Source: a virus
Taxonomy: Duplodnaviria; Caudoviricetes
Direction: 5' to 3' (one strand)
IMG/VR virus record: IMGVR_UViG_3300025018_000044
Location: 1-42,272 of that record
Length of the DNA: 42,272 nucleotides
Shown here: positions 4,683-42,272 of the stretch, piece after piece
Position numbering within the stretch: the first letter of the stretch is position 1
Layout: the number at the start of each line of letters is the position of its first letter
The notes under the pieces: model-generated
The model's database searches: none
The model's input: the letters and a program-made list of their open reading frames with translations, nothing else
What the model was told of the DNA's origin: nothing
Made by a program: the position numbers and the translations under genes

Positions 4683-4744
4683 TCGCGAGGGTTGATTTCA
4701 TAGTGTAGAAAACAACAAACACGCCGCTTTGCAGGTTTAAAAAT

Positions 4745-23981: not shown

Positions 23982-24015
23982 CGCGTTAACGTTTCGCAAT
24001 TAACGTTTGTCTTGT
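23977..24015 (+). promoter_or_regulatory. Repeated early promoter, copy 1 (TTGACG-17-TAACGT)
   Basis: 39 bp identical to 37868-37906 and 40665-40703; sigma70-like spacing. Confidence 0.75.
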
Positions 24016-24048
24016 CGCGACGATGAACGTTGGACGAAAGGACACACC

Positions 24049-24390
24049 ATGAACGTTACACTCTTCAACAATCACACAATCAACTTTGATGCTCCTTTGA
24101 CTTCGGCGGACATCAACGCCATCGCCGACTCGCTGTATGACGAAGGCGGCGTCGGAACGCTTGGCGGCTCCGATGTCGTCAAGTTCGTATTCGAAGTCGT
24201 CGGCGGCGAGCTTTACGCTCGTCGAACGGTCCGTCGAACGTCCGAACTTCCGTATGGAATCAAAGTCGCAGTCTGCGGCGAATTCGTCGGCGTTATTCCG
24301 TCGAAGACGCACGACACAATCGCGTTTCGCTTCGACGACGCGGAATTCGTTTCGATGTCGCCATCGCGTGAAGTGTTTTTCAAGTTCTAA
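24049..24390 (+). CDS. Hypothetical early protein
   Basis: AGGACACACCATG leader directly downstream of the promoter. Confidence 0.75.
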   Translation: MNVTLFNNHTINFDAPLTSADINAIADSLYDEGGVGTLGGSDVVKFVFEVVGGELYARRTVRRTSELPYGIKVAVCGEFVGVIPSKTHDTIAFRFDDAEFVSMSPSREVFFKF

Positions 24391-24411
24391 CCAGTCCGAC
24401 CGACTTCACAA

Positions 24412-24448
24412 TCGCCGCGCCGCTTACAAGCCGCGCGGCTTTTTGCGT
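24412..24448 (+). terminator. Intrinsic terminator-like repeat (identical to 41311-41347)
   Basis: GC-rich stem GCCGCGC.GCT-TACA-AGC.GCGCGGC followed by TTTTT. Confidence 0.65.
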
Positions 24449-24484
24449 GTCGGCATGTCGCCGGCCAAAGGACCAGGACACACA

Positions 24485-25297
24485 ATGGAACGCTCCGAAT
24501 CAATAACCGACCTTGTCGGACGTATGGCGCGGGCTTCGGCCGCAGTGAAGGACCAGAAACCGGAAGGCAAAAACACGCATCAACATTACGCTTATTATAC
24601 GATTCAACAATTCATGCGCGAAGCTCGGAACGTGCTTTCTGGCGCCGGCGTCGCCATCTTTCCGAACGTCGCGGAGGTCGTAGAGTATCCGCAAGTCGGG
24701 AAACAATTTCGCGTCGTCGTCCGGCTTGATGTCATGTTTACGGCCGCAGAATCGGGCGAGTTCATTACGACGAAATGGTACGGCGAAGGGCTTGATTCGT
24801 CCGACAAAGCTTACACGAAGGCGTATACGGCCGCGCTAAAACAATGCCTCCAAAAAACGTTGCTACTCGGCGGCGATGTAGACCCTGATGGTGAAACCAT
24901 CGAGCGCGAAGCATACCGGCCGCGTCAAACCGCCCGTAATGAATCGAACGGACGAACACGACCGAATGCCGGTCCGAGTCGTCAGAATTCAAACCAGGCG
25001 CAAACGGCGAAGCCTAAGACGCCAGAAAAGACCGAGCCGGCCCCGGAAGAATCGCCAGACGAAGAATCAAAAAGGTTCGACAAAGCGTTCGCGGTCGTCT
25101 CTGACATCGTCGCCGACGAAGACGTCGACCGCTTAAAGGAAGCGATTTCGAAGAATCTCGACACGCCGTTCGAAAATATCTCGGCCGACCGTATGCAAAA
25201 TATCGCCAATAAGATTTTGGCGGTCGACGAGCCGGACCGTTACGATACCCTTCGCAGATATATCGACAGATATGCGCCTACAGACGAGGAATTCTAA
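24485..25297 (+). CDS. erf: ERF-family ssDNA annealing protein
   Basis: G.N....Y.Y motif and GEGLDSSDKAYTKAYTAALK...DPD ERF signature. Confidence 0.8.
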   Translation: MERSESITDLVGRMARASAAVKDQKPEGKNTHQHYAYYTIQQFMREARNVLSGAGVAIFPNVAEVVEYPQVGKQFRVVVRLDVMFTAAESGEFITTKWYGEGLDSSDKAYTKAYTAALKQCLQKTLLLGGDVDPDGETIEREAYRPRQTARNESNGRTRPNAGPSRQNSNQAQTAKPKTPEKTEPAPEESPDEESKRFDKAFAVVSDIVADEDVDRLKEAISKNLDTPFENISADRMQNIANKILAVDEPDRYDTLRRYIDRYAPTDEEF

Positions 25298-25713
25298 TGC
25301 TTACGACCAAACGACAAGCCAAGCTCCGCGCGAAGTTCATGCGACACGCTGAATCGCTCGGGCTTCCAAACATCAAAGAGCTTGGCGATAGCCTGCGCCG
25401 GTCTGGCGTTACGAACATTCAACTCATTTTCATTTCGGAAGAGATTACGATGGAAGACAAAGATTTAACGGCTCTCGAAGCAGTCGCCGAAGGGTTTCCA
25501 GATACCGAAGACGATAGCGCGACCATCAAGTCGCTCTGCGTTCGCGCCTGCGCCTGCGGCTTCACACAATCGCAGCTTGCGGACTTGGTCGGAGTAAGTC
25601 CGGTTTCGTTGTCGCGATGGTGCTCCGGCGTCCACGCGCCTTCCAGGCGTAACCTTGAAAGCATTCAATCGACGGTTGCAAAACTGGAAGCCGCCGCCGC
25701 CAAAAACGCATAA
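25297..25713 (+). CDS. XRE-type helix-turn-helix regulator
   Basis: C-terminal GFTQSQLADLVGVSPVSLSRWCSG..APS. Confidence 0.8.
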   Translation: MLTTKRQAKLRAKFMRHAESLGLPNIKELGDSLRRSGVTNIQLIFISEEITMEDKDLTALEAVAEGFPDTEDDSATIKSLCVRACACGFTQSQLADLVGVSPVSLSRWCSGVHAPSRRNLESIQSTVAKLEAAAAKNA

Positions 25714-25823
25714 AAAAACCGAGCGCGGCCTGCATGGTCGCCTCGGTTTGGTCATGACCAGGACAACGACGGAATGAACATCCGTCGTAAATCACGACAA
25801 GCACACATTACACAAGACACACC

Positions 25824-26747
25824 ATGAGCACAATCAGTACAGCGCAAGCGAGCGCAACGGACATCAATCGCACGAAGCGAGGCCGGACCATACAACGGTT
25901 CTGGACTTCGGCGCCGCACGAGCTAACCAGGTCGGCCGACCTTTCCGCGAATGCAAAGCTCGTTTGGATTCTTATCCGCGGCTTTTCGGACGACTACCAA
26001 TGGACACGCGCAGAGCTTCAAACGTTCGCAAACATCGGACATCACGCGTTACGAAAGTCGATGGTCGAACTTCAAAAGGCCGGATGGTTGGAAAAAGAAC
26101 AAATACGCAACGACGACGGAACCTTCGGCGACGTCGCTTGGATAATTCATGAATCGACCGGTAGTACAGAAAGTGTACGTCCGGTTGAATCGACCGGTAG
26201 TACAGAAAGTGTACGTCCGGTTGAATCGTGCCTTTCGGTCGTCGAATCAACGACTTACGAAGAATCGACCGGTAGTACAGAAAGTGTACGTCCGGTTGAG
26301 CCTTCGGAAAGCCGCGCAGAATCTAGCGTTCAGGTGCCTCTCGCGCGCGCGTCTAAAAAAGAACAAGAAAAACAGAGTAGAGCTACTACTACTAAAAACA
26401 TGGCCATGACATTTCCAGAGTTCGAAGCGATGTCCATCAAACGACTTTACGGAGTCAACATATCGCATCCGCCATACCGAACGCTCGAAGTCCTGCAAAA
26501 CCATACTCGGGACCAAATCGAATCGGCATTCGATGCGACATCGAAGTCGAACAAACCGTCGTTCGCATACTTCGCGAAGGTCCTGGAAAACCAGTCCGCA
26601 GGCGTTGAACAACAAACTGCGCATAAACCTTTGACGTCCGGCGAGCGGAATCTTGCCAAGCAATATCGGGACTTCGTAAAGCTTGGAATGCCAATCGACG
26701 ACGAAAAGCAAGCTTTGGTTGATAGGCTGGAACGCGAGTTGAGTTGA
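25824..26747 (+). CDS. Replication initiator (HTH, lambda O-like organisation)
   Basis: N-terminal winged HTH (LSANAKLVW...ELQKAGWL), internal iterons, followed by DnaB. Confidence 0.75.
   Translation: MSTISTAQASATDINRTKRGRTIQRFWTSAPHELTRSADLSANAKLVWILIRGFSDDYQWTRAELQTFANIGHHALRKSMVELQKAGWLEKEQIRNDDGTFGDVAWIIHESTGSTESVRPVESTGSTESVRPVESCLSVVESTTYEESTGSTESVRPVEPSESRAESSVQVPLARASKKEQEKQSRATTTKNMAMTFPEFEAMSIKRLYGVNISHPPYRTLEVLQNHTRDQIESAFDATSKSNKPSFAYFAKVLENQSAGVEQQTAHKPLTSGERNLAKQYRDFVKLGMPIDDEKQALVDRLERELS
26151..26297. repeat. Origin iterons: 3 x 36-bp dyad-symmetric repeats (26151, 26187, 26262)
   Basis: GAATCGACCGGTAGTACAGAAAGTGTACGTCCGGTT, with internal ACCGG..GTACA/TGTAC..CCGGT symmetry. 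An A-rich tract follows at about 26354-26400. Confidence 0.8.
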
Positions 26748-26810
26748 CGGCTTCGGCGAACCGAGCGATTTGTGGAACCTGGTCGATGACTGACCAACGA
26801 AGGACAAAAC

Positions 26811-28148
26811 ATGGAACTCACAGAACTACCAATGGACCGCGAAGCCGAAGAGCGTTTGTTGTCCGCAGTCTTAAAAAATCCGGTACTCGTGTTCGCCGAA
26901 ACCATTACGCGAAATTTTTTCTGGTACGAAGACAATCGCCGAATCTGGTCGGCGATTTGCGAAGCGGTTTCCGAAGGCGTTGAGAATGACATCATTATGG
27001 GCGATGTGCCTTGGCGCATCGAAAAGCAGTACGGACCAGTCATGGTGCATGGTCAACCGCTTAAACGATACATCTTGGACCTTCATTTCAAGTCCGTTTC
27101 GCCCGAAACCGAGTTCGGAATATGGGCGCCGCGCGTTCGGAGCGCATACGTCCGAAGGCTTGTAATTCAGGCTTCACAAAGACTTATCGGCCAAGCGATG
27201 GACGAGCAAAACGGCGACGTAGTCATACGGAATTTTTCGGACGAATCGTCGACCCTGGCGAACTCTTTGTCGAAAAAACGGATGGACATCAAAGGAATCG
27301 CGAAGGACTGGTCGGACAATATCGAGCGCCGATTGCTTGGCGACGGTATCGACGCGACGAAGATTCCTACCGGCGTCTGGCCTATCGACTTTCTTCTTTC
27401 CGGCGGCGGAACCGAAGGCCGGTATACTGTCATCATGGCAAAGAAGAAAATGGGAAAATCGCGGCTTACGACGCGCATCGCTTACAATTGCGCGAAGTCC
27501 GGAGTTCACGTTTTGCATTTTTCCGAAGAAATGACGAACGACGACATGATGTGGCTATATACCGCCGCGCATACCGGCCGCAGTCGCCGCGAATACATGA
27601 AGCCGACCGACGGAAAAACGCCGACGCAAATCGTCGAAATGTCGCGAACCGCGGCGAACGAAATCGCAGAGCTTCCGGTTGCGATGCACTGCGGCCGCGT
27701 CAACGTCCGCGACATCGTATTACGGACGAAGGCGCGAAAGGCGATGGCCGTCGATAGCTCGATTGTCGTCATCGTCGACTATTTGCAATTGGTCGACGGA
27801 CGTCCGGAAGATACGAAGGAATACGACCGCGTGACGTACGTTTCAAAGGAGCTTGCGGCGCTTGCGAAGGCAACCGGCGCATGGGTAGTCGCCTTGTCGC
27901 AACCGAACCGCTGCGAAGGAATGCCGACGCCTGCGAACGCCAGGTCGTCGGGACAAATCGAAAACGACGTCGACGAAATGATTATCTTTCATCGTGCGGC
28001 CGAAGAAGACGAAGATGCGTCGCCGCATGACAAGGCGCAGGGCATTATGTGGCTTGCGCTCAATCGCCACGGCGACACGTTTAAGACGCCGGTCGAATGC
28101 GACTTGCAACGGCTTGAATTTTCACGCCATGACGGTTACAAGTTTTAA
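26811..28148 (+). CDS. dnaB: Replicative DnaB-like helicase
   Basis: AEERLLSAVL, Walker A KKKMGKS, FSEEM, VDYLQLV, LSQPNR, SGQIENDVD, NRHG. Confidence 0.9.
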   Translation: MELTELPMDREAEERLLSAVLKNPVLVFAETITRNFFWYEDNRRIWSAICEAVSEGVENDIIMGDVPWRIEKQYGPVMVHGQPLKRYILDLHFKSVSPETEFGIWAPRVRSAYVRRLVIQASQRLIGQAMDEQNGDVVIRNFSDESSTLANSLSKKRMDIKGIAKDWSDNIERRLLGDGIDATKIPTGVWPIDFLLSGGGTEGRYTVIMAKKKMGKSRLTTRIAYNCAKSGVHVLHFSEEMTNDDMMWLYTAAHTGRSRREYMKPTDGKTPTQIVEMSRTAANEIAELPVAMHCGRVNVRDIVLRTKARKAMAVDSSIVVIVDYLQLVDGRPEDTKEYDRVTYVSKELAALAKATGAWVVALSQPNRCEGMPTPANARSSGQIENDVDEMIIFHRAAEEDEDASPHDKAQGIMWLALNRHGDTFKTPVECDLQRLEFSRHDGYKF

Positions 28149-28177
28149 TCGGCGATGACGCCAACGAAGGACACACC

Positions 28178-28516
28178 ATGAAAGCAAGTGATTTAATCGA
28201 ACGACTGCGACGACTTCCGGCCGACGCCGATGTCGATGTCGAAGTCGTACCTGGACAAACCGTCGGTATATGTTTGGGCGGTTCGACGATTCGGCCTGCT
28301 TACGTGTCCAGCGATAACGAAAACCGCGGCTCCATTATGATTCGTCGAAAAGACGGCGACGCCGTAATTTTGGCGCAAGATGGCGTTGCGATTTGCCGAG
28401 TCGTCATGGCGAAGAAAAGCGGCGGCGTGCGATTCTTCGCGCCGCGCTCAATTGAAATTGTACGCGAAGAGGTCGCGTCAACACGTGGAGTGAAACATGC
28501 TAACGGAATCTTCTGA
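28178..28516 (+). CDS. Protein with a C-terminal CsrA/RsmA-like domain
   Basis: IMIRRKDGDAVIL...APRSIEIVREEV aligns by eye with CsrA LILTRRVGETLMI...APKEVSVHREEI. Confidence 0.6.
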   Translation: MKASDLIERLRRLPADADVDVEVVPGQTVGICLGGSTIRPAYVSSDNENRGSIMIRRKDGDAVILAQDGVAICRVVMAKKSGGVRFFAPRSIEIVREEVASTRGVKHANGIF

Positions 28517-29153: not shown

Positions 29154-29190
29154 GCTCTGCGACGACCGCAGGACATGACCAGGACGAACC

Positions 29191-29652
29191 ATGAAAACGA
29201 CACGCATTTTTATACTCGGACTCCGCGCCGAACCTTGGTCCGTAAGCATCGGCGAAGGCCGACGCGTGTTCAAAGGCGCGAAGCTTAAACAGTATCAAAA
29301 AGACTTGCGACTTATCGCCGGCGCCAAAGTCCGCGCAATCGACTTCGGAATGCAACCGGTTCGAATGGACCTGCTTGTTATCCGAAAGCGGTCGAAGACG
29401 GCCGCAAAGGCGCGCGCAAAGGATGGAATCAAAGGCGGCTTCGAATGGCATACGCAAACGCCGGACCGCGACAATTTTCATAAAGCTACACAAGACGCGT
29501 TTAAAGGGTTTTGGCCGGACGATTCCATCGTCTGCTCTGGAACGACCGACAAAATGTTCGGACCGGAAGACGCGATTTGCATCATTTTTTCGGAACCGGA
29601 ATCGGTCGACGAAGTTCTTTCATTTTACGGAATATCGGAGGGCATGTTTTGA
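29191..29652 (+). CDS. rusA: RusA-like Holliday junction resolvase
   Basis: Catalytic motif PDRDNFHKATQDAFKG..PDDSIV. Confidence 0.85.
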   Translation: MKTTRIFILGLRAEPWSVSIGEGRRVFKGAKLKQYQKDLRLIAGAKVRAIDFGMQPVRMDLLVIRKRSKTAAKARAKDGIKGGFEWHTQTPDRDNFHKATQDAFKGFWPDDSIVCSGTTDKMFGPEDAICIIFSEPESVDEVLSFYGISEGMF

Positions 29653-32095: not shown

Positions 32096-32099
32096 CGAG

Positions 32100-32128
32100 T
32101 TGACATGACAGATGCTCGCAATTAACGT
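32100..32128 (+). promoter_or_regulatory. Early promoter variant TTGACA-17-TAACGT
   Basis: Shares TCGCAATTAACGT with the repeated promoter. Confidence 0.7.
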
Positions 32129-32163
32129 AACGGTTCGGCGATGACGCCAACGAAGGACACACC

Positions 32164-33171
32164 ATGACGCAAATTATACGAATGCCAGAGGCCGAATATC
32201 ATTCACGCGACGAAGTTTCGTCGACGATGCTACGACGGTTCGACCGGTCGCCGGCGCATATGATGATGCCAGTCAAACGAACAAAGTCGATGATTTTAGG
32301 CTCGCTCGTTCACGCGATGGTTTTAACGCCAGACGAAATCGAACTCCACTTCGCGCAGAAACTTCCGGACGTCGAAAAGCCGGACGGTTGCGATTTCCGA
32401 AAGAAGGAATGGAAAGAATGGCGCGACGGCGCCGACGGACAAGCTTATTTACAGGCGGACGAAGACACGAAGGCGGCGAACGCAGAGCTTCAACGTCGCG
32501 CAGACGAAACCGACTTCGAAATCGTTTCCGAGTCGACCTGGAAGACGGCCGAAGCGATGGCGCGCCGCGTGAAAGAACATCCGATTTTCGAAAAGCTGAA
32601 TCCGACGCGGGACCAATGCGAAGTAAGCATCGTTTCCGAATTCGATTCGCCGCGCGGACGCATCAAAGGCCGATGTCGATACGACATGCTCGTCGAACGG
32701 ACGTCGGCCGACATCAAATGTACGGTCGATGCATCGCCAGAGGCGTTTATGCGGTCCGTAATCAAGTTCGGATATCACGTCCAGTTTGCGTTCTATAACC
32801 GGCTCCATATCGAAGAGCACGGCGTTCCGCTGGACGAGTGGTACTTTATCGCCGTCGAAGCGAAGTCGCCGATAGGCGTCGCCGTCTACACCTTACCGCC
32901 GGAAGCCAAGCGCGCCGGCGACGAATATTTAAACCGAATCATGCCGGAATTTTCGCGATGGTACTTCGACGACTATCCGAACGGAATCGCGCAGTCATAC
33001 TCGCCGATTCCGCAGGCGTTACCATGGCCAAGATGGGCCGGCGGATATCAGGACAACCAACGAGAAACCGCGGACGAAACTCCGTACGTCGAAGACATCG
33101 GCGACGAATTCGAAGACGACGACGCGTTCGACTTCGCCGAAGCCGAAGAGCTTGATTTTTCGGACTTCTAA
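32164..33171 (+). CDS. PD-(D/E)XK exonuclease (RecE/exonuclease VIII, DUF3799-like)
   Basis: EYH..VSST.L, GSLVHAMVL, RCRYD, DIKCT, YHVQFAFY, FIAVE. Confidence 0.85.
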   Translation: MTQIIRMPEAEYHSRDEVSSTMLRRFDRSPAHMMMPVKRTKSMILGSLVHAMVLTPDEIELHFAQKLPDVEKPDGCDFRKKEWKEWRDGADGQAYLQADEDTKAANAELQRRADETDFEIVSESTWKTAEAMARRVKEHPIFEKLNPTRDQCEVSIVSEFDSPRGRIKGRCRYDMLVERTSADIKCTVDASPEAFMRSVIKFGYHVQFAFYNRLHIEEHGVPLDEWYFIAVEAKSPIGVAVYTLPPEAKRAGDEYLNRIMPEFSRWYFDDYPNGIAQSYSPIPQALPWPRWAGGYQDNQRETADETPYVEDIGDEFEDDDAFDFAEAEELDFSDF

Positions 33172-33173
33172 CG

Positions 33174-33401
33174 ATGCGAATTCCGCTTCGTCACGATGTC
33201 GACGCACTGCGAAGGCGGTTCCGGCGCCGGAAATATCTTGCGCGATGGCCTTTCGTGGCGATGGCAATTGTCGCCGGCGCCGCTTTTTTCTTTGTCACGG
33301 TTCGCGACAATCCGAACCGGATTTATTCTCAGGAGTCCTTTAATGATGTTCAAAAAACGTGCGAAAGTCGTCGTTTCCTGGCGATACCCTGGCGGTTATA
33401 A
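33174..33401 (+). CDS. Small basic membrane peptide
   Basis: Arg-rich N-terminus, then a single transmembrane segment WPFVAMAIVAGAAFFFVTV; starts 2 nt after the exonuclease stop. Confidence 0.45.
   Translation: MRIPLRHDVDALRRRFRRRKYLARWPFVAMAIVAGAAFFFVTVRDNPNRIYSQESFNDVQKTCESRRFLAIPWRL
33186..33227. repeat. 42-bp perfect inverted repeat, partner at 39081-39122
   Basis: CTTCGTCACGATGTCGACGCACTGCGAAGGCGGTTCCGGCGC is the exact reverse complement of 39081-39122. Confidence 0.95.
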
Positions 33402-33912
33402 CGACGAGCTCTTCGGAACCGAAGTCGGTCAAAAGGTAGAAATAGAAGTCCGTAAAAAAGGCGACTGGAAATGGAATCATTTATGGCTTCCGTTCGTCGT
33501 GTTCATCGTCGGAATCTTCGCGCCGGCATGGCGCAAACGCTGGAACGAAACGTTCGCCGTTACCGTCGGAACGACGTGTTATTTTCCGACGACATCGCCG
33601 AGCGAAGGACTTGTTGCGCACGAAGCTCGTCACGCGTTGCAGTGGTGCCGCGAGCGTTTCCTTTACGTCGCGAAGTATGCTTTTCGCGGCGCCTGGCGTC
33701 TTGCATACGAGGCCGAAGCCGTCGAATTCGGACAACATGCGTTCAATGTTTCAGGAAATCGCGAAGCGCTTATCGAACACTGGTCGCGTGCGTTGTCCGG
33801 CTCGGCTTACTTGTATGCGGCCGACTACGAAACCGCGTACGGTCGATTCAGCTTGGCGACGAAACGGACTAACGTCCAAGTGTTCATGACACAAAAAGAG
33901 CTTTCAACTTAA
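33343..33912 (+). CDS. HExxH metallopeptidase-like protein (DUF4157-like)
   Basis: AGGAG ribosome site; AVTVG...LVAHEARHALQW...YEAEA. Confidence 0.65.
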   Translation: MMFKKRAKVVVSWRYPGGYNDELFGTEVGQKVEIEVRKKGDWKWNHLWLPFVVFIVGIFAPAWRKRWNETFAVTVGTTCYFPTTSPSEGLVAHEARHALQWCRERFLYVAKYAFRGAWRLAYEAEAVEFGQHAFNVSGNREALIEHWSRALSGSAYLYAADYETAYGRFSLATKRTNVQVFMTQKELST

Positions 33913-33946
33913 ACCGTTTGGCGATGACGCCAACGAAGGACACACC

Positions 33947-34984
33947 ATGACAGACGAATTTACGCCGAACGTTTGCGACGTCCGCGAAGGACGGACGGAA
34001 CCGCCTGCGTCGCAACCAGAGCCGACGAAGCTTCCGCCGTCGCCGCGCCTTTCCGAGCTTGTTCAAAAAGAGGGCGCAGAGGTCACGTTTTACGCGGCCG
34101 CATCAACCGAGCTTAAAAAAACGAAGACGAAAAAGCCTTTCGTTTCATGGGAATTTTACGACGGAAAATCGACGATATTCGGAACGCAATTTGATACGTC
34201 CGAAGCCTTCGAAACCGGCGTTTTTAAAGTTCGCGGAAAGTTCGAAAAATATAACGACGTCATGCGGATTCGCGTTTCGAAGGTTCGGCCGGTTGACGAT
34301 TCAGACGACATCGACGCCGACCTTTCGTCGTGGATTGAAATTCGCGAATCGGAATTCGCAGCGGCCGAACTCGTCGACAAGTTCAACGCCGCGCTCGAAT
34401 GGATTTCCGAACCAGTCCGAAACGTCGTCTTAGACATCTTGGAAACGCTCGGACCGGCGTTCGCAGAGGCTCCGGCTTCGGTTCAATATCACCATGCGTT
34501 TACGCGCGGGCTTTTCGAACACACTACATCGATGCTCGGCGCGGCTTCGGCCATCGTCGGACACTATTCGAAAATGTACCCTGCAACGCCAATCAATGCC
34601 GACGTCGTATACTCGGCCATCGTCTTGCATGACGCGTTTAAGGCCATCGACGCGCGTCTTGATGCGGCTGAGTGGATACCTACAAACGAATCGTTTTTGA
34701 TTGGCCATATCGCAGCGTCGGCGCACGCAATCCTTTCGCAGACTTGGCCGGACGGAATCGGACAAGACATCGCGCACGCCGTCCTTTCACACCATGGAAC
34801 GCTAGAATTCGGCTCGCCTGTTCCGCCGCGGACTATTGAAGCGTTCATCGTGCATTCAGTAGACATGCTCGATTCGAAGCTCTTCATGTACCGCGAAGCC
34901 GTCGTCGGCGTTGCGCCTGGCGAAATGTCGCCGTATTCGTACGCGCTGCGAACCGTCGTTCGAAGCGGAAGGGGCGAAGCATGA
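33947..34984 (+). CDS. yhaM: OB-fold + HD 3'-5' exoribonuclease, YhaM/Cbf1 family
   Basis: N-terminal OB fold, then APAS..YHHAF.RGLFEHT, LHD.FK, GHI, SHHG.LEFGSPVPPRTIEA, D.LDSK. Confidence 0.85.
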   Translation: MTDEFTPNVCDVREGRTEPPASQPEPTKLPPSPRLSELVQKEGAEVTFYAAASTELKKTKTKKPFVSWEFYDGKSTIFGTQFDTSEAFETGVFKVRGKFEKYNDVMRIRVSKVRPVDDSDDIDADLSSWIEIRESEFAAAELVDKFNAALEWISEPVRNVVLDILETLGPAFAEAPASVQYHHAFTRGLFEHTTSMLGAASAIVGHYSKMYPATPINADVVYSAIVLHDAFKAIDARLDAAEWIPTNESFLIGHIAASAHAILSQTWPDGIGQDIAHAVLSHHGTLEFGSPVPPRTIEAFIVHSVDMLDSKLFMYREAVVGVAPGEMSPYSYALRTVVRSGRGEA

Positions 34985-35679
34985 AGGCCATAACCATCAA
35001 ACAACCATGGGCGACGCTGATAGCTTCCGGCGTGAAAGGCGTCGAAAATAGAACATGGCCGGTTCCAAAAACAATCCGCGGACAACGCATCGCGATACAT
35101 GCCGGAAAGGGCTTCGACGACGTAGGTTTCGAGGATTTCCTGGAAGGCGTATGCGGTTGCGACGGCGAGTACCCTTATTGTCAGATTTGCAATCTTTGGA
35201 AGTTCGTCGCCGGCGGCGAGCGCGAAAACTGGCACGAGCAAAATGCAATCTTCGAAGCGAACATCGCCCTTTCGAAAACGGTATCGGGTCGCATCCTGGC
35301 AACCGCGCTCGTCGTCGGACAAACCAAACCAGGCGAAGACTTCGTTTCAAAAGGCTCCGAATTCTGGTCGTCGAAACCATGCTTTAATTGCGACGGCAGA
35401 GGCCGGCTTGATGCGCGCCGAATCGTCGGCGAAATGGGAATCGACCAGATATTCGAAACGCTTCCGGATTTCTACGAGTGCGAATACTGCGACGGAACCG
35501 GAAACGGATATGTTTCCGAGGCTGACCTTTTGTTCGCGGAAAAAGATGCATATTCGTGGATTTTGGCCGACGTCCGGTTGACATACGACGAAGCTCTATA
35601 CGTTGGAAAACAAGGCCTTTGGATTGTTCCAGAACCATCAAATGACCATCAAATGACCATCAAAAAGGACACAAAATGA
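34981..35679 (+). CDS. ASCH domain protein with inserted Cys motifs
   Basis: MKAITIKQPWA.LI..GVK.VENRTW, IAIHAG and GKQGLW; two CxxCxGxG motifs. Confidence 0.85.
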   Translation: MKAITIKQPWATLIASGVKGVENRTWPVPKTIRGQRIAIHAGKGFDDVGFEDFLEGVCGCDGEYPYCQICNLWKFVAGGERENWHEQNAIFEANIALSKTVSGRILATALVVGQTKPGEDFVSKGSEFWSSKPCFNCDGRGRLDARRIVGEMGIDQIFETLPDFYECEYCDGTGNGYVSEADLLFAEKDAYSWILADVRLTYDEALYVGKQGLWIVPEPSNDHQMTIKKDTK

Positions 35680-36161
35680 ACGAAGAAATTATCAAGATTC
35701 TGGAAATGTTTCGGACTGGTTTTTTGAACCAAATAACGAACATCGCGCTCGCAATGCACGACCAGGTCAAAGACACGCGCGACGTCGAATATATCAAGGC
35801 GCCTGGCGATGACGTCGCGACGAAGTCGGCCGCAGTCGACGCGATGGCGCTTGTGTCAGCTTGGATTGTCGCGCTCGGCGAGGCTCAATTTTTAGACGCC
35901 GGTTATGTTCGCGTCATCGGAAACGGAAAGCCGTCGCGATGCGCCTTCGAAGCTATCGTCGGACCGTTGCGATTCGAAGACGGCTCCGGACGTCCAGCAA
36001 ACGGCCTACCGGTCGTAGTCGCCGAAGACGACGGCGAGTACTTCGTCGAAGTCCCGGTCGTCGTTCGCGTTCGCGTAAATCCGGATTTTCCGATTGATGA
36101 ATCGTTGCGCGCAAAGGCGAACGGCCTAATCACGCCACAAATTGAAATCATAAAGGGTTGA
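35676..36161 (+). CDS. Hypothetical protein
   Basis: AAGGACACAAAATG start, coupled to the previous gene. Confidence 0.7.
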   Translation: MNEEIIKILEMFRTGFLNQITNIALAMHDQVKDTRDVEYIKAPGDDVATKSAAVDAMALVSAWIVALGEAQFLDAGYVRVIGNGKPSRCAFEAIVGPLRFEDGSGRPANGLPVVVAEDDGEYFVEVPVVVRVRVNPDFPIDESLRAKANGLITPQIEIIKG

Positions 36162-36670
36162 ACATGTCGTCGAAAATTACGCCTGCGCAATTGCGCATAC
36201 TGATTACGTCCGTCGGCGCGATGTCGCACCTTCGGCGGACCGTTGCGAACTACATCGAGCCGGACATGTCACTCGGCGGACTTCCGTCGGATTACGTGTT
36301 AGGAATCCGCGCCGCCTTGATGCGTCAAGCTCGAGTCGAACCTGGCGACTCTATTCACTGCTTGGACATGGTCGCGACCCTTGACGCGATGCGGCCGCAT
36401 TTCGAAACCGGAGGCCGGTTCTGGAACGCTGAAACATACGCCGTCGCCGAAGCCGCCGAAGCCGCCGGAATCGTCACGCGAACGCGATTCGAATACGACC
36501 AAAGAGGAAACATGAACCGAGTACTCGTTACCCTTTCACGCGATACCGTCAAAGCGAGCTATGTCGTCGCATTTCCGGCGGAAGGGTCATCGCATTACAT
36601 TGGCGATACACTTGCGACATACATCAAAGTTTTAGCGCGCGAATCTTTCAACGTGGAGCTCGGCCGATGA
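36158..36670 (+). CDS. Hypothetical protein
   Basis: Coupled ORF; start is TTG 36158 or ATG 36164. Confidence 0.65.
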   Translation: MNMSSKITPAQLRILITSVGAMSHLRRTVANYIEPDMSLGGLPSDYVLGIRAALMRQARVEPGDSIHCLDMVATLDAMRPHFETGGRFWNAETYAVAEAAEAAGIVTRTRFEYDQRGNMNRVLVTLSRDTVKASYVVAFPAEGSSHYIGDTLATYIKVLARESFNVELGR

Positions 36671-37197
36671 ACACTTCAAAAAATGAACCTACGCCAGACG
36701 AATACCGCGCTTTTTGCGCATCGATGTACTGCGCGCCGGATACAGTCGACCGCGACTTGTACGTCGCCTTTTTGCTGGAAGAGGAAACCGGCGAAGTCGC
36801 GAAGCTCTTCGCGAAGGCCATCCGCGACAACGAACACGTCGTCGACCATGACAAGTTGAAAGACGAACTCGGCGACGTCCTGTGGTGCTCTTCGTTCGAT
36901 GGCAAGTCGTCCAAGGTATGGCCGACGTTCAACATCGACGGATTGCCAAGACATACAAGGCCGGTCGAACCTGGCGACGTGTTCAACCGATACGGCCGAA
37001 GCCGCCGGCAATGGTACTACGGCCATATTCTAAGCTTGATGCAAACCGTTCGACACGCGCCGTCGCTTGACGCCGCCGCCGCCAGGCTTTGCGCCGCGCT
37101 TGGCTTCGAGCCGGCCGACGTCGCAGCGCATAACGTCGCAAAGCTCAAAGACCGCAAAGCGCGCAACGTCATCAAAGGCGCAGGCGATGGACGATGA
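36667..37197 (+). CDS. mazG: MazG-like nucleotide pyrophosphohydrolase
   Basis: EETGEVA...LKDELGDVLW...NVAKLKDR...GAGD.R. Confidence 0.8.
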   Translation: MNTSKNEPTPDEYRAFCASMYCAPDTVDRDLYVAFLLEEETGEVAKLFAKAIRDNEHVVDHDKLKDELGDVLWCSSFDGKSSKVWPTFNIDGLPRHTRPVEPGDVFNRYGRSRRQWYYGHILSLMQTVRHAPSLDAAAARLCAALGFEPADVAAHNVAKLKDRKARNVIKGAGDGR

Positions 37198-37442
37198 CTC
37201 CGCCGCTTTCAAAATGCGCATCGTGTCACGCGTCGATTTATTGGGCTTCAACGCGAATCGGCCGAGCAATGCCAATCGACGCCGAGCCGTCCGACGATGG
37301 CAACGTCGCGCTCGTCTGGTCCGAAAGGCTTAACCGCATCGTTTGTCACGTTGTCGCCGACCGCGCAGGCTTCGGCCATCCGCTGCGAACCAGTCACTTC
37401 GCGACATGTCCAGACGCCGACCGTTTTAGGCGCAAAGGGTAG
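37194..37442 (+). CDS. Small Zn-finger protein
   Basis: CASC...MPIDAEP...SHFATCP. Confidence 0.75.
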   Translation: MTPPLSKCASCHASIYWASTRIGRAMPIDAEPSDDGNVALVWSERLNRIVCHVVADRAGFGHPLRTSHFATCPDADRFRRKG

Positions 37443-37501
37443 GATTTTTTGATTTAGGGACGTGGCAAGCTGCGCCGTCTCGCGCGCGACCCTTCGTCGT
37501 G

Positions 37502-37531
37502 TTGACTCTTTCCGATTCTTTCGATTAACGT
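37502..37531 (+). promoter_or_regulatory. Early promoter variant TTGACT-18-TAACGT
   Basis: Same -10 and a tandem TTAACGT, followed by the leader hairpin. Confidence 0.55.
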
Positions 37532-37575
37532 ATTAACGTCGACGATGTCCGTCGGCCATAACCAGGACACACACC

Positions 37576-37842
37576 ATGAACGAACTTGTAATCGGCGCGT
37601 CGTATCGCAGGAAATGAAGCTCGAGCCTGGTCGCGAAATCGTTGTCAGCGGAATCCGACACGTCTACGACGGAATGTTTTTCAAAGTCGCGGACGTGGAA
37701 GATATGCCGGGAACCTACGTTTACACGCGGCCGTTATAGGTACGGCTTGACGCTCGTCGCCTGCGTCGATTACCTTCGGACTCTCTTCGGACGGCGAAAA
37801 CGACTATTCGTCGAACTTCCGGCGCAAACGGTCGACCCTTGA
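37576..37842 (+). pseudogene. Frameshifted hypothetical gene, or a 13-aa leader peptide plus coupled ORF
   Basis: The full leader motif points to ATG 37576, but that frame stops after 13 codons. Protein-like text continues in the 37614-37739 frame. Confidence 0.4.
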
Positions 37843-37867
37843 TTCAGGTCGGCCGTTTGCTTTTCTT

Positions 37868-37906
37868 GTTGACGCGTTAACGTTTCGCAATTAACGTTTG
37901 TCTTGT
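37868..37906 (+). promoter_or_regulatory. Repeated early promoter, copy 2
   Basis: 39-bp identity with 23977-24015. Confidence 0.75.
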
Positions 37907-37938
37907 TGAGGCGATGAACGCCGAACGAAGGACGCACC

Positions 37939-38184
37939 ATGACAGAGCAATACACGACACGATTCACGCAGTTTTGCAAAGCTTTCGACACGACTCCGGA
38001 GTCGATGACGGAACGCGTCAACCGCGAACGGAAGAGGGTCGTCTTTAATGGAATCGACATGCAATGGAACGCAGCGTTTATCGAATGGACGCGCGAAATG
38101 TGGACCAAGTTCGACCCGACGTTGACGACCGGCCAACGTATGATGAAACAAGCCGAGTTTGACGCTTGGCTTTCGAGCCTTTGA
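37939..38184 (+). CDS. Hypothetical early protein
   Basis: Leader motif AAGGACGCACCATG. Confidence 0.75.
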   Translation: MTEQYTTRFTQFCKAFDTTPESMTERVNRERKRVVFNGIDMQWNAAFIEWTREMWTKFDPTLTTGQRMMKQAEFDAWLSSL

Positions 38185-38205
38185 AGTCCGGCGCAAGCCG
38201 AAGCC

Positions 38206-38258
38206 GACCAGGTCGACCGCGAAAGCCGTCGGCCTTTCGACGTGTCGGCATGTCGCCG
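38206..38258 (+). repeat. 53-bp intergenic direct repeat (identical to 38581-38633)
   Basis: GACCAGGTCGACCGCGAAAGCCGTCGGCCTTTCGACGTGTCGGCATGTCGCCG flanks gene 38281-38565. Confidence 0.9.
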
Positions 38259-38280
38259 AACGATTGAACCAGGACACACC

Positions 38281-38565
38281 ATGAGCGAAACCATTCACAA
38301 CCAGACGACATGCGGCGACGACGAGGCGAACCTGCGCGCCATCATTTTTCGCGGCGCTTACTGGTTCGACCTTTCCGTTTCGGAAGCCGCGGACCATGTT
38401 TGGATTTCTGGCAACCGCGCCGGCTCCGAACGGCTTGAGTCGTTACTTGCGGCGCTTGGATATGGCGACAACATCGCCGGCGGAATCAAGCGATACGATA
38501 CCGGAAGCCGGACGGTCGTCATCGAATTCTACTTGGCCGACATCGCCGAAACCCTGGCGTCGTAA
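38281..38565 (+). CDS. Hypothetical early protein
   Basis: Leader motif CAGGACACACCATG. Confidence 0.75.
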   Translation: MSETIHNQTTCGDDEANLRAIIFRGAYWFDLSVSEAADHVWISGNRAGSERLESLLAALGYGDNIAGGIKRYDTGSRTVVIEFYLADIAETLAS

Positions 38566-38654
38566 CCTTCCGAATCTTCGGACCAGGTCGACCGCGAAAG
38601 CCGTCGGCCTTTCGACGTGTCGGCATGTCGCCGGCCAAAGGACCAGGAACGAAC

Positions 38655-39413
38655 ATGAGTGACGAACAAAGGCGGAAGACTCAAGACTTGCAGGCCGAAC
38701 GCGAACGACTTATCCGCGCAGAGGATAGCCTTGCGGCCGGTCCGCCGCCGAAGCCTGCGCACGTATTCAAGGCGTCGGCCGACCGCGCAGGAAAAACCGC
38801 CGCCGCCGAGCTTGAATATTTACGGTCGCAGCTTGAAACGATGTCGCTCGATTTGGCGGCTTCACGCGAACGGACCAGGGTTGCAGAGACGACCGCGAAG
38901 GAATACGCGCACGCATACCAAAGAACAGAGCAGGAACACGCCGAAAGCCGTCGTCAAGTCGATTCGCTTTGCGATGAGCTTCGCTATCGGGTCGATTGTC
39001 GACATCGCGTCGTCAAGCTTGAACGCGCAGTCCGCGATTGCGAAGCCTGCAACCATGTATTGAACACGCTCGCGACTTTTGCGCCGGAACCGCCTTCGCA
39101 GTGCGTCGACATCGTGACGAAGAAAGTCGCGCAGGACTTCGAAGCCGCGAAGCTCGAAAACGAACGGCTCCGCAAATGTTTGGCCGAAGCCGAACGAATC
39201 GCGAAAGCATGGCGTCAAGATGACAATACCGAATGCGCCGCGTGTGGATATGGCGGCTCTGAGTGGTGGTATCATCAACAACCAGGGGACGGACGCCCGC
39301 GGTGTCAAAATTGCCACGAAGTGAACACGTCAAAAGAACGCGACGACATCGAAGTCGGCGGTATGGCCGAGCGCCTTATCAACACGTTTGGAATCGAACC
39401 GGAGGCCGTATGA
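38655..39413 (+). CDS. Coiled-coil protein with CxxC motifs
   Basis: Leader motif; heptad repeats; CEAC, CAAC and CQNC motifs. Confidence 0.7.
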   Translation: MSDEQRRKTQDLQAERERLIRAEDSLAAGPPPKPAHVFKASADRAGKTAAAELEYLRSQLETMSLDLAASRERTRVAETTAKEYAHAYQRTEQEHAESRRQVDSLCDELRYRVDCRHRVVKLERAVRDCEACNHVLNTLATFAPEPPSQCVDIVTKKVAQDFEAAKLENERLRKCLAEAERIAKAWRQDDNTECAACGYGGSEWWYHQQPGDGRPRCQNCHEVNTSKERDDIEVGGMAERLINTFGIEPEAV

Positions 39414-39646
39414 TTGACAACATGAAGGTTAAAACCGAAACCAGAAACGGGCTTATTTATCGTGTCCTGATACTTACCGAAGCCGGCGAAGAGTGGTTAA
39501 TCGAAGAGTCGAACGACGGACATTTGATGATTTCGCTTCGAAGCGACCGCGACGACGAAGCCGGCCGCGGAAAGAATGTTTTCAAGTCGCTTGAAATGGC
39601 GGCGAGCCGATTCCGGCCGACCGTCAAGCTCCGAGGCGTCCAGTGA
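39410..39646 (+). CDS. Hypothetical protein
   Basis: GGAGG ribosome site, ATGA coupling. Confidence 0.65.
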   Translation: MIDNMKVKTETRNGLIYRVLILTEAGEEWLIEESNDGHLMISLRSDRDDEAGRGKNVFKSLEMAASRFRPTVKLRGVQ

Positions 39647-39813
39647 ACGGCGACCGAGGCGTCGTCTGCGTCACGCGGAAGCCTGGTCAATCGATTGTCG
39701 TCACGCTGGAAGACGGCCGCGAAATCATCATTACGGTTCGCAAGATTCGCGGTAACGATACATCAATCGCAGTCGACGCAGATAAGTCGATTGCAATCCA
39801 AAGGGTCCGATAA
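39643..39813 (+). CDS. csrA: CsrA/RsmA-like translational regulator, 56 aa (not in ORF track)
   Basis: Translates as MNGDRGVVCVTRKPGQSIVVTLEDGREIIITVRKIRGNDTSIAVDADKSIAIQRVR. GAGG ribosome site, GTGA and TAATG coupling at both ends. Confidence 0.8.
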   Translation: MNGDRGVVCVTRKPGQSIVVTLEDGREIIITVRKIRGNDTSIAVDADKSIAIQRVR

Positions 39814-40403
39814 TGAAAGTCTTAATAGCTTGTGAATACTCCGGCGTCGTGCGCGACGCGTTCATTTCAGCGGGCCACGAAGCGTTGTCCTGCGACTTGT
39901 TGCCTACGGCGGCCGGACCGCATTTTCAAGGCGACATCAAAGATTTACTCCGAAACGATTCGGATTGGTCGCTCGTCATCGCGCATCCGCCTTGCACCTA
40001 TTTAAGCTCTTCCGGGCTTCACTGGAACGGACGGATTCCAGGTCGCGCGGAAAAGACGGCCGAAGCGTTGGAATTCATCCGGTTCTTTCTCAACTTTGGA
40101 TTCGAACGCCTTGCGCTTGAAAATCCAATCGGCTGCATTTCTTCGAAGATTCGCAAGCCGAATCAAATTATTCAACCATTTCAATTTGGACACGCCGAAT
40201 CAAAGTCGACTTGTCTTTGGTTGCAGAGCTTACCGTTACTCGTGCCGACGGACGTCATCGCAAAGCCTTTATGTGGGCATTGGGAAAACCAAACGCCAAG
40301 CGGCCAAAACAAGCTACCGCCGAGCAAAGACCGCGCGAAGATTCGGTCGCGGACATACGAAGGAATCGCGGCCGCGATGGCGAATCAATGGGGCGCCTTA
40401 TGA
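39813..40403 (+). CDS. Phage-type DNA cytosine methyltransferase-like protein
   Basis: MKVLIACEYSG, SCDLLP, AHPPCTYL, ENP and RS.TY.GIA.AMA.QWG. Confidence 0.75.
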   Translation: MKVLIACEYSGVVRDAFISAGHEALSCDLLPTAAGPHFQGDIKDLLRNDSDWSLVIAHPPCTYLSSSGLHWNGRIPGRAEKTAEALEFIRFFLNFGFERLALENPIGCISSKIRKPNQIIQPFQFGHAESKSTCLWLQSLPLLVPTDVIAKPLCGHWENQTPSGQNKLPPSKDRAKIRSRTYEGIAAAMANQWGAL

Positions 40404-40669
40404 GCGTCGTCGCGCAATGGAATATTGTCCGGACGAGCTACGAAACCGGACCGTACGTCATAACGGCCGTGTTCGGACCGTGTTCCTGCGGGACTATGTT
40501 TTCGGACGAACCGCGCGAGCCTCACTATCATATGGAATGTGAACGCGCCGATACTGGCGAAGGCGGTTTCGGGCTTAACGGTTATCGTCTGGACGGTACT
40601 TCGGTTTCTTCCGATGACACGCTCGAGCTTGTTGGTTCGGTTGTTGGCCAATTGTCGCTTTTAAGTTGA
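40400..40669 (+). CDS. Hypothetical protein ending in QLSLLS
   Basis: ATGA coupling; its stop lies inside the next -35 box. Confidence 0.6.
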   Translation: MSVVAQWNIVRTSYETGPYVITAVFGPCSCGTMFSDEPREPHYHMECERADTGEGGFGLNGYRLDGTSVSSDDTLELVGSVVGQLSLLS

Positions 40670-40703
40670 CGCGTTAACGTTTCGCAATTAACGTTTGTCT
40701 TGT
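40665..40703 (+). promoter_or_regulatory. Repeated early promoter, copy 3
   Basis: Identity with copy 1 extends to 54 bp (40665-40718 = 23977-24030). Confidence 0.75.
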
Positions 40704-40743
40704 CGCGACGATGAACGTCGTTTCAAAACAACCAGGACACACC

Positions 40744-41052
40744 ATGAACAACCAAGACTTGTTTCACTTGCTTTCGGCGATTCAAGCGCGCGTAGAACTC
40801 TGCGAATTCAGCAAAGCGGCCGAAGCCGCCGGCGCCGACTTGGCCGTCGAAATCGCCGGCGCAATTTCCGCCGACTTCGCCGGAGTACTTCGAAAAAGCC
40901 GGCTTGAATCCGTTCGATATCAAAACGAAAAGCTCGATTTGCTGGTCGCCGAACATCAGGAACGTAACGCCGAAGAGCATATCGAACGGCTCGTTACGCT
41001 TATTGCAGCGCTTGGGCCATGGTCGCCGCTCTTCGGAAATAATCGGAAATGA
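40744..41052 (+). CDS. Hypothetical early protein
   Basis: Leader motif CAGGACACACCATG. Confidence 0.75.
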   Translation: MNNQDLFHLLSAIQARVELCEFSKAAEAAGADLAVEIAGAISADFAGVLRKSRLESVRYQNEKLDLLVAEHQERNAEEHIERLVTLIAALGPWSPLFGNNRK

Positions 41053-41288
41053 ACAACACGCTCAATACCGCAACGCAGGCCGAACAAGACCGCGCGACCC
41101 TGATTTACAAAATGCAAAACGCTTCGGTATGGGATATCGAAGACGTCGTTACCGCCGACGGCCGAACGCTGGACATCGTCCCGAGCGACGGCCGATACTG
41201 GTTCCGCATCGACCTTGTCGTCGTGAAGTCGATTCCGCGCGGTCCGTTCTTTACTGCTTGGCTTCGATTCGTCGAAGAGAACGCGTAA
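41049..41288 (+). CDS. Hypothetical protein
   Basis: ATGA coupling to the previous gene. Confidence 0.65.
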   Translation: MNNTLNTATQAEQDRATLIYKMQNASVWDIEDVVTADGRTLDIVPSDGRYWFRIDLVVVKSIPRGPFFTAWLRFVEENA

Positions 41289-41310
41289 GCCGACCGGCTT
41301 CAACCTACCT

Positions 41311-41347
41311 TCGCCGCGCCGCTTACAAGCCGCGCGGCTTTTTGCGT
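41311..41347 (+). terminator. Intrinsic terminator-like repeat, copy 2
   Basis: 37-bp identity with 24412-24448. Confidence 0.65.
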
Positions 41348-41387
41348 ATCAGAGCGACGATGTCCGTCGCCATCGAAAGGGCGAACC

Positions 41388-41888
41388 ATGATTACTTACG
41401 ACCATCAAAACCGGATTCCGAAAAACGACCATGCGGACATGAATCCGGAAGCCGTCCGACTTCACTGGACGCTCGTCGACATCGTCGAAAAATCGGACGA
41501 CGGAACGCATAACGAACATTTGATGTACGACTTGAATACCGGAACGCATGGCGCGCCGAGCGCCGAATGGTTCGCTCGGTTCGTCGTCTGGCAGGCGTAT
41601 TACAGTCGCGACGAATACGCAGCGCTCGACCCTTCGCGCGACCGTCGTCAATTCCTGGTCGAAGTCGTCGACGTCATCAACGCGCACGAGGTCATTTGGT
41701 CGACGCGTGACATCGACTCCGGCCTTACGAAGACACGTCATTACGTCGCGATTCATCCGGATTCCTTTCGGCCGAAGCAAAGCCGCAGGGTCGTCGATAA
41801 CTTCGACGCAGAGTCCGGCCGGTCGCTTGTCGCGTCGGTAACGTATTCGTTCGACCAGGTTCGGCCGGAGGCGTCATGCGACTTCTAA
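41388..41888 (+). CDS. Hypothetical protein
   Basis: Leader hairpin plus AAGGGCGAACCATG. Confidence 0.7.
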   Translation: MITYDHQNRIPKNDHADMNPEAVRLHWTLVDIVEKSDDGTHNEHLMYDLNTGTHGAPSAEWFARFVVWQAYYSRDEYAALDPSRDRRQFLVEVVDVINAHEVIWSTRDIDSGLTKTRHYVAIHPDSFRPKQSRRVVDNFDAESGRSLVASVTYSFDQVRPEASCDF

Positions 41889-42223: not shown

Positions 42224-42272
42224 TTGACGCCGCGCTTGATGCGCTTGCGGCCGAATTCAAGCGCGTTCGCGC

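Follow-up and report, generated by a model that had tools for sequence, protein, structure and literature searches.

What is the small hairpin that recurs in front of the non-structural genes of the phage genome in IMG/VR record IMGVR_UViG_3300025018_000044, and what might read it? The stretch analyzed here, referred to as the window, comprises all 42,272 nucleotides of that record. An original prediction had described, ahead of at least 12 early genes, a hairpin with an AUG loop and a varying stem followed by an AGGACAC-like Shine-Dalgarno (SD) site, and had proposed a translational operator for two CsrA-like proteins encoded by the same phage. We find that this leader is a real element with 14 members and that it stands at almost every non-structural gene that starts translation independently. 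An operator of the CsrA type is a possible reading of it, held here tentatively.

A hairpin leader at independently initiated genes

Each unit is built from a stem of 4-8 bp, a loop of the form A-(U/C)-G-(A/U)-N, a spacer, and an AGGA SD. Over 230 nt of spacer in total, 75% of the letters are A or C and 3% are U. A GGA is present at the SD in 12 of the 14 leaders, lying 9 nt before the ATG in 11 of them and 11 nt before it in one; the loop A lies 14-24 nt from this GGA and, as originally reported, 23-33 nt from the start codon. A composite scan for an ATG loop of 4-7 nt with at least four Watson-Crick pairs, followed by AGGA or AAGG and an ATG, returned 12 copies on the plus strand and none on the minus strand, against a mean of 0.13 and a maximum of 1 in 100 dinucleotide shuffles. 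The 12 hairpins first listed for this DNA have the coordinates, stems and loops ascribed to them, and the variant with a 7-nt loop is present at 25766-25788. A loop-agnostic scan recovered the set and added a copy that had been missed, with an ACGAC loop before rusA, which widens the loop consensus to A-(U/C)-G-(A/U)-(C/A or absent). The 12 AUG-loop scan copies, the ACGAC-loop copy and the 7-nt-loop copy make up the 14 members, given here with the open reading frame (ORF) that each precedes:

24018..24051, plus strand: leader, CGACG-ATGAA-CGTTG, AGGA SD, start of ORF 24049; downstream of the promoter-like site at 23978
24449..24487, plus strand: leader, GTCGGC-ATGTC-GCCGGC, two GGA, start of the Erf-like annealing gene 24485; after a terminator-like hairpin
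25766..25826, plus strand: variant leader, 8-bp stem, 7-nt loop ATGAACA, spacer without GGA; replication initiator 25824 lies 50 nt downstream
26780..26813, plus strand: leader, TGGTCG-ATGAC-TGACCA; DnaB-like helicase 26811
28151..28180, plus strand: leader, GGCG-ATGA-CGCC; CsrA-like gene 28178
29156..29193, plus strand: leader, the 14th member, TCTGCG-ACGAC-CGCAGG; RusA-like resolvase 29191
32137..32166, plus strand: leader, GGCG-ATGA-CGCC; RecE/exonuclease VIII-like 32164; downstream of the promoter-like site at 32100
33918..33949, plus strand: leader, TTGGCG-ATGA-CGCCAA; YhaM-like HD exoribonuclease 33947
37538..37578, plus strand: leader, GTCGACG-ATGTC-CGTCGGC; 13-codon ORF 37576; downstream of the promoter-like site at 37502
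37910..37941, plus strand: leader, GGCG-ATGAA-CGCC; ORF 37939; downstream of the promoter-like site at 37869
38245..38283, plus strand: leader, TCGGC-ATGTC-GCCGA; ORF 38281; after a terminator-like hairpin
38619..38657, plus strand: leader, GTCGGC-ATGTC-GCCGGC; ORF 38655; a competing fold with a UCGG loop is predicted to dominate
40705..40746, plus strand: leader, GCGACG-ATGAA-CGTCGT; ORF 40744; downstream of the promoter-like site at 40666
41354..41390, plus strand: leader, GCGACG-ATGTC-CGTCGC, AAGGG SD, ORF 41388; after a terminator-like hairpin

A leader is found at 14 of the 15 non-structural starts with an upstream gap of at least 29 nt and at none of the 18 coupled starts (Fisher p = 2e-8); the sole gapped non-structural start without one belongs to a doubtful 47-codon GTG ORF. 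The element is therefore the leader of almost every independently initiated non-structural gene, and the earlier proposal that these genes share it holds, for a structured and sequence-selected element, at 14 of the 15 gapped starts. The leader is absent from the structural genes, including those with free gaps, and their SD is often of the GAGGU type. AGGA lies upstream of 16 of 32 non-structural and 1 of 21 structural starts (p = 0.0007, for copies that are not independent).

Two simple explanations of the loop were tried and rejected. Its ATG falls in all three frames relative to the gene, as had been noted, and has no SD of its own, which excludes a conserved start or upstream ORF (uORF); 4 of 12 uORFs end in an ATGA overlap. 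A general pseudoknot between loop and SD fails because UGUC-GACA pairing is possible only in the AUGUC copies.

Some neighboring arrangements are recorded as observations in their own right. At 35639-35675 a short tandem repeat with ATGAC is followed by an AGGACAC SD, with no hairpin, at the overlapped start of ORF 35676. The 13-codon ORF driven by the leader at 37538 has a stop that overlaps the start of a 41-codon ORF (37614-37739), and the whole arrangement (37576-37739) is either a coupled mini-peptide or a broken gene. Among the structural genes, the leaders at 3930-3974 and 4706-4747 share an A/C-rich stretch, ACGCCGCTT and an AGAG/AGG-TTT-AAAA start region, possibly a late-gene motif.

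Covariation and predicted folding

The claim that the stems vary and still pair was scored with a loop-anchored script on the 13 short-loop copies. These have nine distinct stems, and 43 of 45 cells were paired, against 27.4 +/- 3.8 when arms were swapped (p = 1e-4). Because several copies are recent duplicates, the independent stem families number about 5, not 12; with one copy for each of the 5 families, 24 of 25 cells were paired, a value that 1 of 120 permutations reached and none exceeded. Repeats of 36-62 nt flank small ORFans. RNAalifold on a MAFFT alignment returned no pairs, because alignment gaps put the stems out of register, and model R1 is therefore sequence-only; scanned over 635 kb, it returned no new member at E < 0.05. 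The Rfam search that had been suggested was run, and no Rfam 15 covariance model matched anywhere in the window at E up to 1. Contig pieces from sequencing runs X2, X4, X5 and X7 cover the hairpins at 25766, 32137, 37538, 37910 and 41354 with zero differing letters. In a 95-nt folding context, most of the first four pairs reach a predicted probability of at least 0.7 in 12 of the 14 hairpins, and the stability of the short-loop hairpins is modest (-2.7 to -9.2 kcal/mol).

Promoter-like and terminator-like sites

Five of the 14 leaders lie directly downstream of a sigma70-type promoter-like site, and four others follow a terminator-like hairpin:

23978..24006, plus strand: promoter-like, sigma70-type, TTGACG-N17-TAACGT; within a 62-nt repeat with other copies at 37868 and 40665
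32100..32128, plus strand: promoter-like, TTGACA-N17-TAACGT
37502..37531, plus strand: promoter-like, TTGACT-N18-TAACGT
37869..37897, plus strand: promoter-like, TTGACG-N17-TAACGT
40666..40694, plus strand: promoter-like, TTGACG-N17-TAACGT
24414..24444, plus strand: terminator-like hairpin, 7 bp, C.C mismatch, short cap, T5; directly before a leader
41313..41343, plus strand: terminator-like hairpin, second copy of the 24414 sequence
38210..38235, plus strand: terminator-like hairpin, GAAA loop, same build on another stem; within a 53-nt identical repeat
38585..38610, plus strand: terminator-like hairpin, second GAAA-loop copy

The TAACGT sites were found by regular expression; a general promoter and terminator scan missed them, and no excess was shown. 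A hairpin follows all five TTGAC-N17/18-TAACGT sites, with its loop starting 12-16 nt after the -10 box, so that it would be at the 5' end of the transcript. A sixth, weaker site found by the same search on the plus strand, at 37747, has no hairpin after it. Four AUGUC leaders each come directly after a terminator-like hairpin of 7-8 bp with a C.C mismatch and a short GC cap, built on two unrelated stem sequences.

At two of the promoter sites (24007-24046 and 37898-37936), the bases that directly follow the -10 box are able to pair with the AGGACA SD; for transcripts with a start further upstream, predicted SD accessibility is 0.32-0.39 instead of 0.69-0.81. Read-through messages may therefore be silenced and locally started ones open.

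The phage and its setting

The window is a complete 42-kb genome with a terminal overlap of 127 nt and direct terminal repeats, rated 100% complete. The sequencing run that covers it best is a metagenome from an aquifer, and pieces with the same letters turn up in further runs from aquifers, groundwater and hot springs; no RNA dataset is among the runs listed as holding the phage. All annotated genes are on the plus strand. The structural half (0.4-22 kb) carries portal, capsid, tail-like and lysis genes, and the region at 23-42 kb carries methylases, Erf, a helix-turn-helix (HTH) protein, initiator, DnaB, RusA, SSB and terminase, together with RecE-like, YhaM-like, ASCH-like and MazG genes and many ORFans. 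We infer from this gene content and from the host-type promoter sites that the leader-bearing genes are early ones.

Three further features of the genome were seen. The packaging module is split in an unusual way: between the terminase large subunit and the portal lie about 10 kb of non-structural genes (32096-42272 and 1-383) that have promoter-like sites of their own. At 22740-23981, two ORFs, one ParB-like and one for a DNA methylase, match successive parts of phrog_498 and are possibly a split or frameshifted ParB-methylase gene. Within the initiator gene, a 38-nt repeat occurs three times in identical copies (26151-26299), and these are likely origin iterons.

Two CsrA-like proteins

The proposal that two CsrA-like proteins are encoded here is supported by Pfam, profile and structure matches, and the gene at 28178 does carry the leader itself:

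28178..28516, plus strand: CsrA-like gene 1, 112 aa, extra N-terminal part, CsrA-like at about 46-104, Arg44 equivalent kept
39643..39813, plus strand: CsrA-like gene 2, 56 aa, GTG start, translationally coupled, no leader

The 39643 protein scores 32.2 bits against PF02599, above the cut-off of 27, and falls below the NCBIfam equivalog cut-offs (23.7 against 73 bits, and 19.6 against 70.1). Aligned to CsrA, it keeps the equivalents of Thr5, Arg6 and Arg44 (T11, R12 and R54) and is changed at those of Arg31, Pro37 and His43; it has no C-terminal helix and ends two residues past the Arg44 equivalent. Its AlphaFold model has a mean predicted local distance difference test (pLDDT) score of 90.9, and Foldseek places CsrA, RsmA or RsmE at every listed rank to 13 (prob 1.0, E 0.02 or worse). 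As a homodimer it has a predicted score of 0.64, against 0.00 for the best control, with 100% contact agreement between runs and pLDDT of at least 80. Of 30 solved homodimers 20 reach the mark used, as does 1 of 23 single chains, and resemblance to CsrA structures already solved may explain why 39643 passes. On these models, 39643 is predicted to fold as CsrA.

The 28178 protein is the more divergent of the two. Its score against PF02599 is 16.4 bits (E 0.009), below the cut-off of 27, and it has no sequence match in the PDB. Its C-terminal part matches the 39643 family by hhalign (95%, E 4e-8), and its Atlas model matches a PF02599 cluster with a template modeling (TM) score of 0.77 by target and 0.47 by query. 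Its own AlphaFold model (pLDDT 37.6) is unusable.

Related leaders in other phages

Apart from the window itself, terminase searches of IMG/VR and JGI metagenomes gave no relative above 53%; terminase proteins at 97% and 53-54% are known at the protein level. In a phage whose terminase is at 41-46% (contigs L026 and L028), AUGUC hairpins precede ACACC-ATG starts, and the same leader slot also holds AUGGG and AGGUC loops as well as ACGGA and GAGGAA loops. Between these two strains the genes upstream of one hairpin differ, and identity resumes about 20 nt before the hairpin. Repeated promoter and leader cassettes were observed in this phage of 70% GC (L028 2636-2733, 3040-3133 and, on the minus strand, 14790-14885; L026 1-8737). 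They have a CCGAACGAACGGA SD and hairpins with GGA or AUG loops, and it is at these cassettes that the strains differ by gene swaps and insertions.

The nearest available homologue of a window csrA gene is in G053 (contigs L465-L467), a complete 45.5-kb IMG/VR phage with two csrA-like genes. The G053 homologue is 60% identical to 39643, and the two phages share only three proteins. G053 has seven covarying canonical A(N)GGAU hairpins over SDs (shuffle mean 0.15), one of them with an exact ACGGAU loop, and these follow the same kind of promoters and terminators as the window leaders; the window has no A(N)GGAU hairpin over an SD. G053 suggests, by analogy, that the protein subfamily of 39643 is tied to early-leader hairpins, with 39643 itself reading GGA. 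No Rfam 15 model matched L026, L028, L465 or L467 at E up to 0.1.

Pattern scans were also made for single hairpins of this kind. The AUGUC pattern in IMG/VR gave 13 of 49 clusters with a stem of at least 5 bp against 3.0 expected, in unrelated phages and as single hairpins; a control loop gave 3 of 11 clusters against 0.7 expected, a weak control that contained a rare word and had 12 matches. Another pattern scan had 14 matches, none of them a hairpin leader. A second, covering 120 of about 310 matches, gave 9 of 86 clusters with a stem of at least 5 bp against 3.75 expected, all single copies, and a genome pattern scan covering 120 of about 160 matches gave 31 of 98 clusters against 15.9 expected, without a control loop. 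No multi-copy hairpin family was found in the seven full phage records that carry an AUGUC match. Among unselected leaders (216 hairpins in 3.3 Mb) the commonest loop was UUCG; AUG pentaloops numbered 2 against 1.5 expected, and tetraloops 4 against 2.0.

A possible CsrA-type two-site operator

The loop is fixed on changing stems, and its reader would therefore be a sequence-specific one of single-stranded nucleic acid; the strict tie to translation starts argues for an element that works at the RNA level. Among the candidates here, only the CsrA-like pair have a known two-site mode. CsrA bridges sites 10-63 nt apart (PMC7652899, excerpt), and the spacing of 14-24 nt between loop and GGA falls inside this range. 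By analogy, we tentatively favor the possibility that the leader is a two-site RNA operator of the CsrA type, through which phage CsrA-like dimers would jointly shut off the early genes. Repression rather than activation is proposed because early genes need translation before phage proteins exist.

Early in infection, the open, U-poor spacer and the AGGA would give host ribosomes free starts. As CsrA-like protein accumulates, one RNA-binding face would take the single-stranded A-GGA-C at the SD, a canonical though weak site, and in the weakest step of the scheme the other face would take the non-canonical loop 14-24 nt upstream. The loop would more plausibly be read by the 28178 protein, the more divergent of the two, and its own leader would provide negative feedback. 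Structural genes would escape through SDs that are mostly of the GAGGU type without AGGA, and the leader may have spread among genes as a small repeated cassette.

Of the original proposal of a two-site operator, the GGA at the SD, the spacing and the leader on 28178 stand, but the second site does not have the expected form, since none of the 14 hairpin loops contains GGA. Several further findings weigh against a CsrA-type operator. The bases of A(N)GGAX are read through the protein backbone and are not replaceable (Duss et al., PMC4005645, excerpt), and two core positions of AGGAX are different in AUGUC. For E. coli CsrA, a GGA site is reported to tether degenerate second sites, but those are GGN or AGA, whereas the loops here are UGA or UGU (PMC10729762, excerpt). 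The GGA at the SD is needed for translation anyway. Two hairpins are predicted to fold mostly otherwise, that at 38619 (0.01) into a competing UCGG-loop hairpin and that at 33920 (0.15). G053 has no AUG-loop leader, and its homologue shares the changes of 39643 at the Arg31, Pro37 and His43 equivalents, yet goes with canonical loops. Each of eight further phages with csrA (G080 and seven cultured ones, two of these covered to 99%) has 0-2 AUG- or ACG-loop leaders by a stricter script that recovers 11 of the 14 window leaders plus one extra. No csrA-like gene was found in the 19.5 kb seen of the 54.9-kb L028 contig. A check that finds both csrA-like genes in the window found PF02599 in none of the 50 records examined of 79 with AUGUC, including 30 with a single AUGUC hairpin, and in 2 of 49 records of a G-AUGWM-C set, of which none was among the 13 hairpin-positive ones; many records in both sets are fragments.

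The more specific claim of a shifted loop specificity did not hold up: no loop has a GGA, the bases of the canonical site are read by the backbone (PMC4005645, excerpt), the 60% homologue goes with canonical loops, and other phages with csrA have 0-2 leaders. It is doubtful that a CsrA paralogue, most plausibly 28178 and perhaps as a heterodimer with 39643, has been re-tuned to an AUG-type loop in place of GGA. If true, its operator would be orthogonal to the host Csr system and would tag every independently translated early gene for a coordinated, self-limiting shut-off, breaking the rule that the CsrA fold fixes the RNA code.

Other readings of the leader

The loop may instead be read by a protein other than the CsrA-like pair, which we regard as somewhat unlikely. 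The candidates are an RNA-binding or ribosomal factor of the host and, from the phage, the ASCH-domain protein (34981), the YhaM-like nuclease or one of the small ORFans; such a reader would enhance, protect or later shut off messages, with the CsrA-like pair limited to the GGA at the SD or to host RNA. A fixed loop without GGA on covarying stems fits such a reader, as does the argument from backbone readout against a loop shift in CsrA (PMC4005645, excerpt), and the phage itself encodes ASCH-like and YhaM-like proteins. At 5' ends close to a promoter, and before ACACC-ATG, the AUGUC hairpin also occurs in the unrelated phages L120 and L187 and the L115 group, where csrA was not detected. However, no candidate protein has been tied to the loop, and the IMG/VR excess of long-stem AUGUC hairpins (13/49) is proportionally equalled by the control loop (3/11, a small number). 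A widespread host factor is also disfavored by the lack of any enrichment of AUG loops among unselected leaders.

It is unlikely that the leader works without any protein, as a portable expression cassette resembling PeSL or SAS, in which a 5' hairpin for message protection or ribosome standby, an unstructured A/C-rich spacer and an SD share a loop by descent and are copied by recombination. The position of the hairpin at the predicted 5' end after all five promoter-like sites, and after terminator-like hairpins in four more cases, agrees with such a cassette, and so do the A/C-rich, U-poor spacer, the repeats that flank small ORFans and the gene exchange upstream of the hairpin between L026 and L028. 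Against this, the stems have split into 5 families while the loop was kept, whereas neutral descent would predict the opposite; the loop belongs to no known extra-stable type and the hairpins are modest; and structural genes with free gaps have no leader.

We consider it quite improbable that the hairpins punctuate one long early transcript as boxB-like antitermination, pause or RNase-processing signals. BoxB is a small hairpin with a fixed pentaloop, which these hairpins recall, and several copies come directly after terminator-like hairpins. The copies lie after rather than before terminators, however, and recur at nearly every free start with a spacing linked to the SD, and stems of 4-8 bp are short for RNase III. 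A signal at the DNA level, whether an attC-like single-stranded hairpin for recombination (cassette shuffling by Erf/RecE) or a palindrome that the HTH protein 25297 would use as its operator, is very improbable: although Erf-like, RecE-like and RusA-like genes are encoded and genes have been exchanged beside a hairpin in L026 and L028, the leaders are strictly sense-strand and at a fixed distance from start codons, G.U-type pairs occur within stems, essential replication genes carry the leader, no joints at leaders were seen in source-run contigs (which drop rare variants), and variable arms around a fixed centre are the opposite of a dimeric DNA operator, a candidate rejected on that ground.

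Relation to known systems

Phage-encoded control at the initiation regions of a gene class has precedents in early-mRNA shut-off by T4 RegA and RegB and in control of the mom hairpin by Mu Com. Those proteins are unrelated to the ones considered here, and profile searches of the window proteins found no homologue of them. Known CsrA and RsmE operators (glgC, hcnA; PDB 2jpp; PMC4005645, PMC7652899, excerpts) are alike in joining an upstream loop site to a GGA at the SD, with spacing within 10-63 nt, CsrA-fold proteins with an Arg44 equivalent, and possible autoregulation. They differ in that the loop here is A-(U/C)-G-(A/U)-N without GGA, that the candidate proteins and the sites are both phage-encoded, and that 39643 has no C-terminal helix and 28178 has an extra N-terminal part.

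The start-associated SAS and extended ESAS repeats of Cluster K mycobacteriophages (PMC3203893, excerpt) likewise form a repeated, one-orientation SD motif just before the ATG, confined to non-structural genes with larger gaps, and some have an upstream inverted repeat. The leader sequence differs from the 13-bp SAS consensus, and the ESAS inverted repeats are of 17 bp with conserved arms and variable spacers, for which that part of the source gives RNA pairing as unsupported, whereas here the arms compensate and the loop is kept. The PeSL of T4-type phages (PMC4122927, PMC2839356, excerpts) are repeats of a sigma70 promoter, stem-loop and SD before ORFans, associated with gene exchange; in the window, 5 of the 14 leaders come after a promoter-like site. 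In PeSL the stem-loop is a terminator with a conserved stem, placed inside the promoter or upstream of it. The window hairpin comes after the -10 box, lacks a U tract, conserves its loop and also serves core replication genes. By these analogies, the leader would act like a CsrA two-site operator though its loop lacks GGA, is distributed like SAS though its RNA stem covaries, and is repeated like PeSL without being a terminator.

Genes like csrA have been found in 30 of 2517 phage genomes, and in the excerpted part of the review that reports this, their function is described as untested and no targets are assigned (PMC7366521). The function of SAS repeats has been unexplained since their description (PMC3203893, excerpt). 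In the open-access literature, supplements aside, we found no description of an AUG-loop leader. The window supplies 14 defined RNA sites and two small candidate proteins, with G053 as a natural control that has canonical sites. If no protein is involved, the leader would still be an undescribed portable module for starting translation. A CsrA-fold protein with a changed loop specificity, if true, would bear on the rules of RNA recognition and would provide an orthogonal translational switch.

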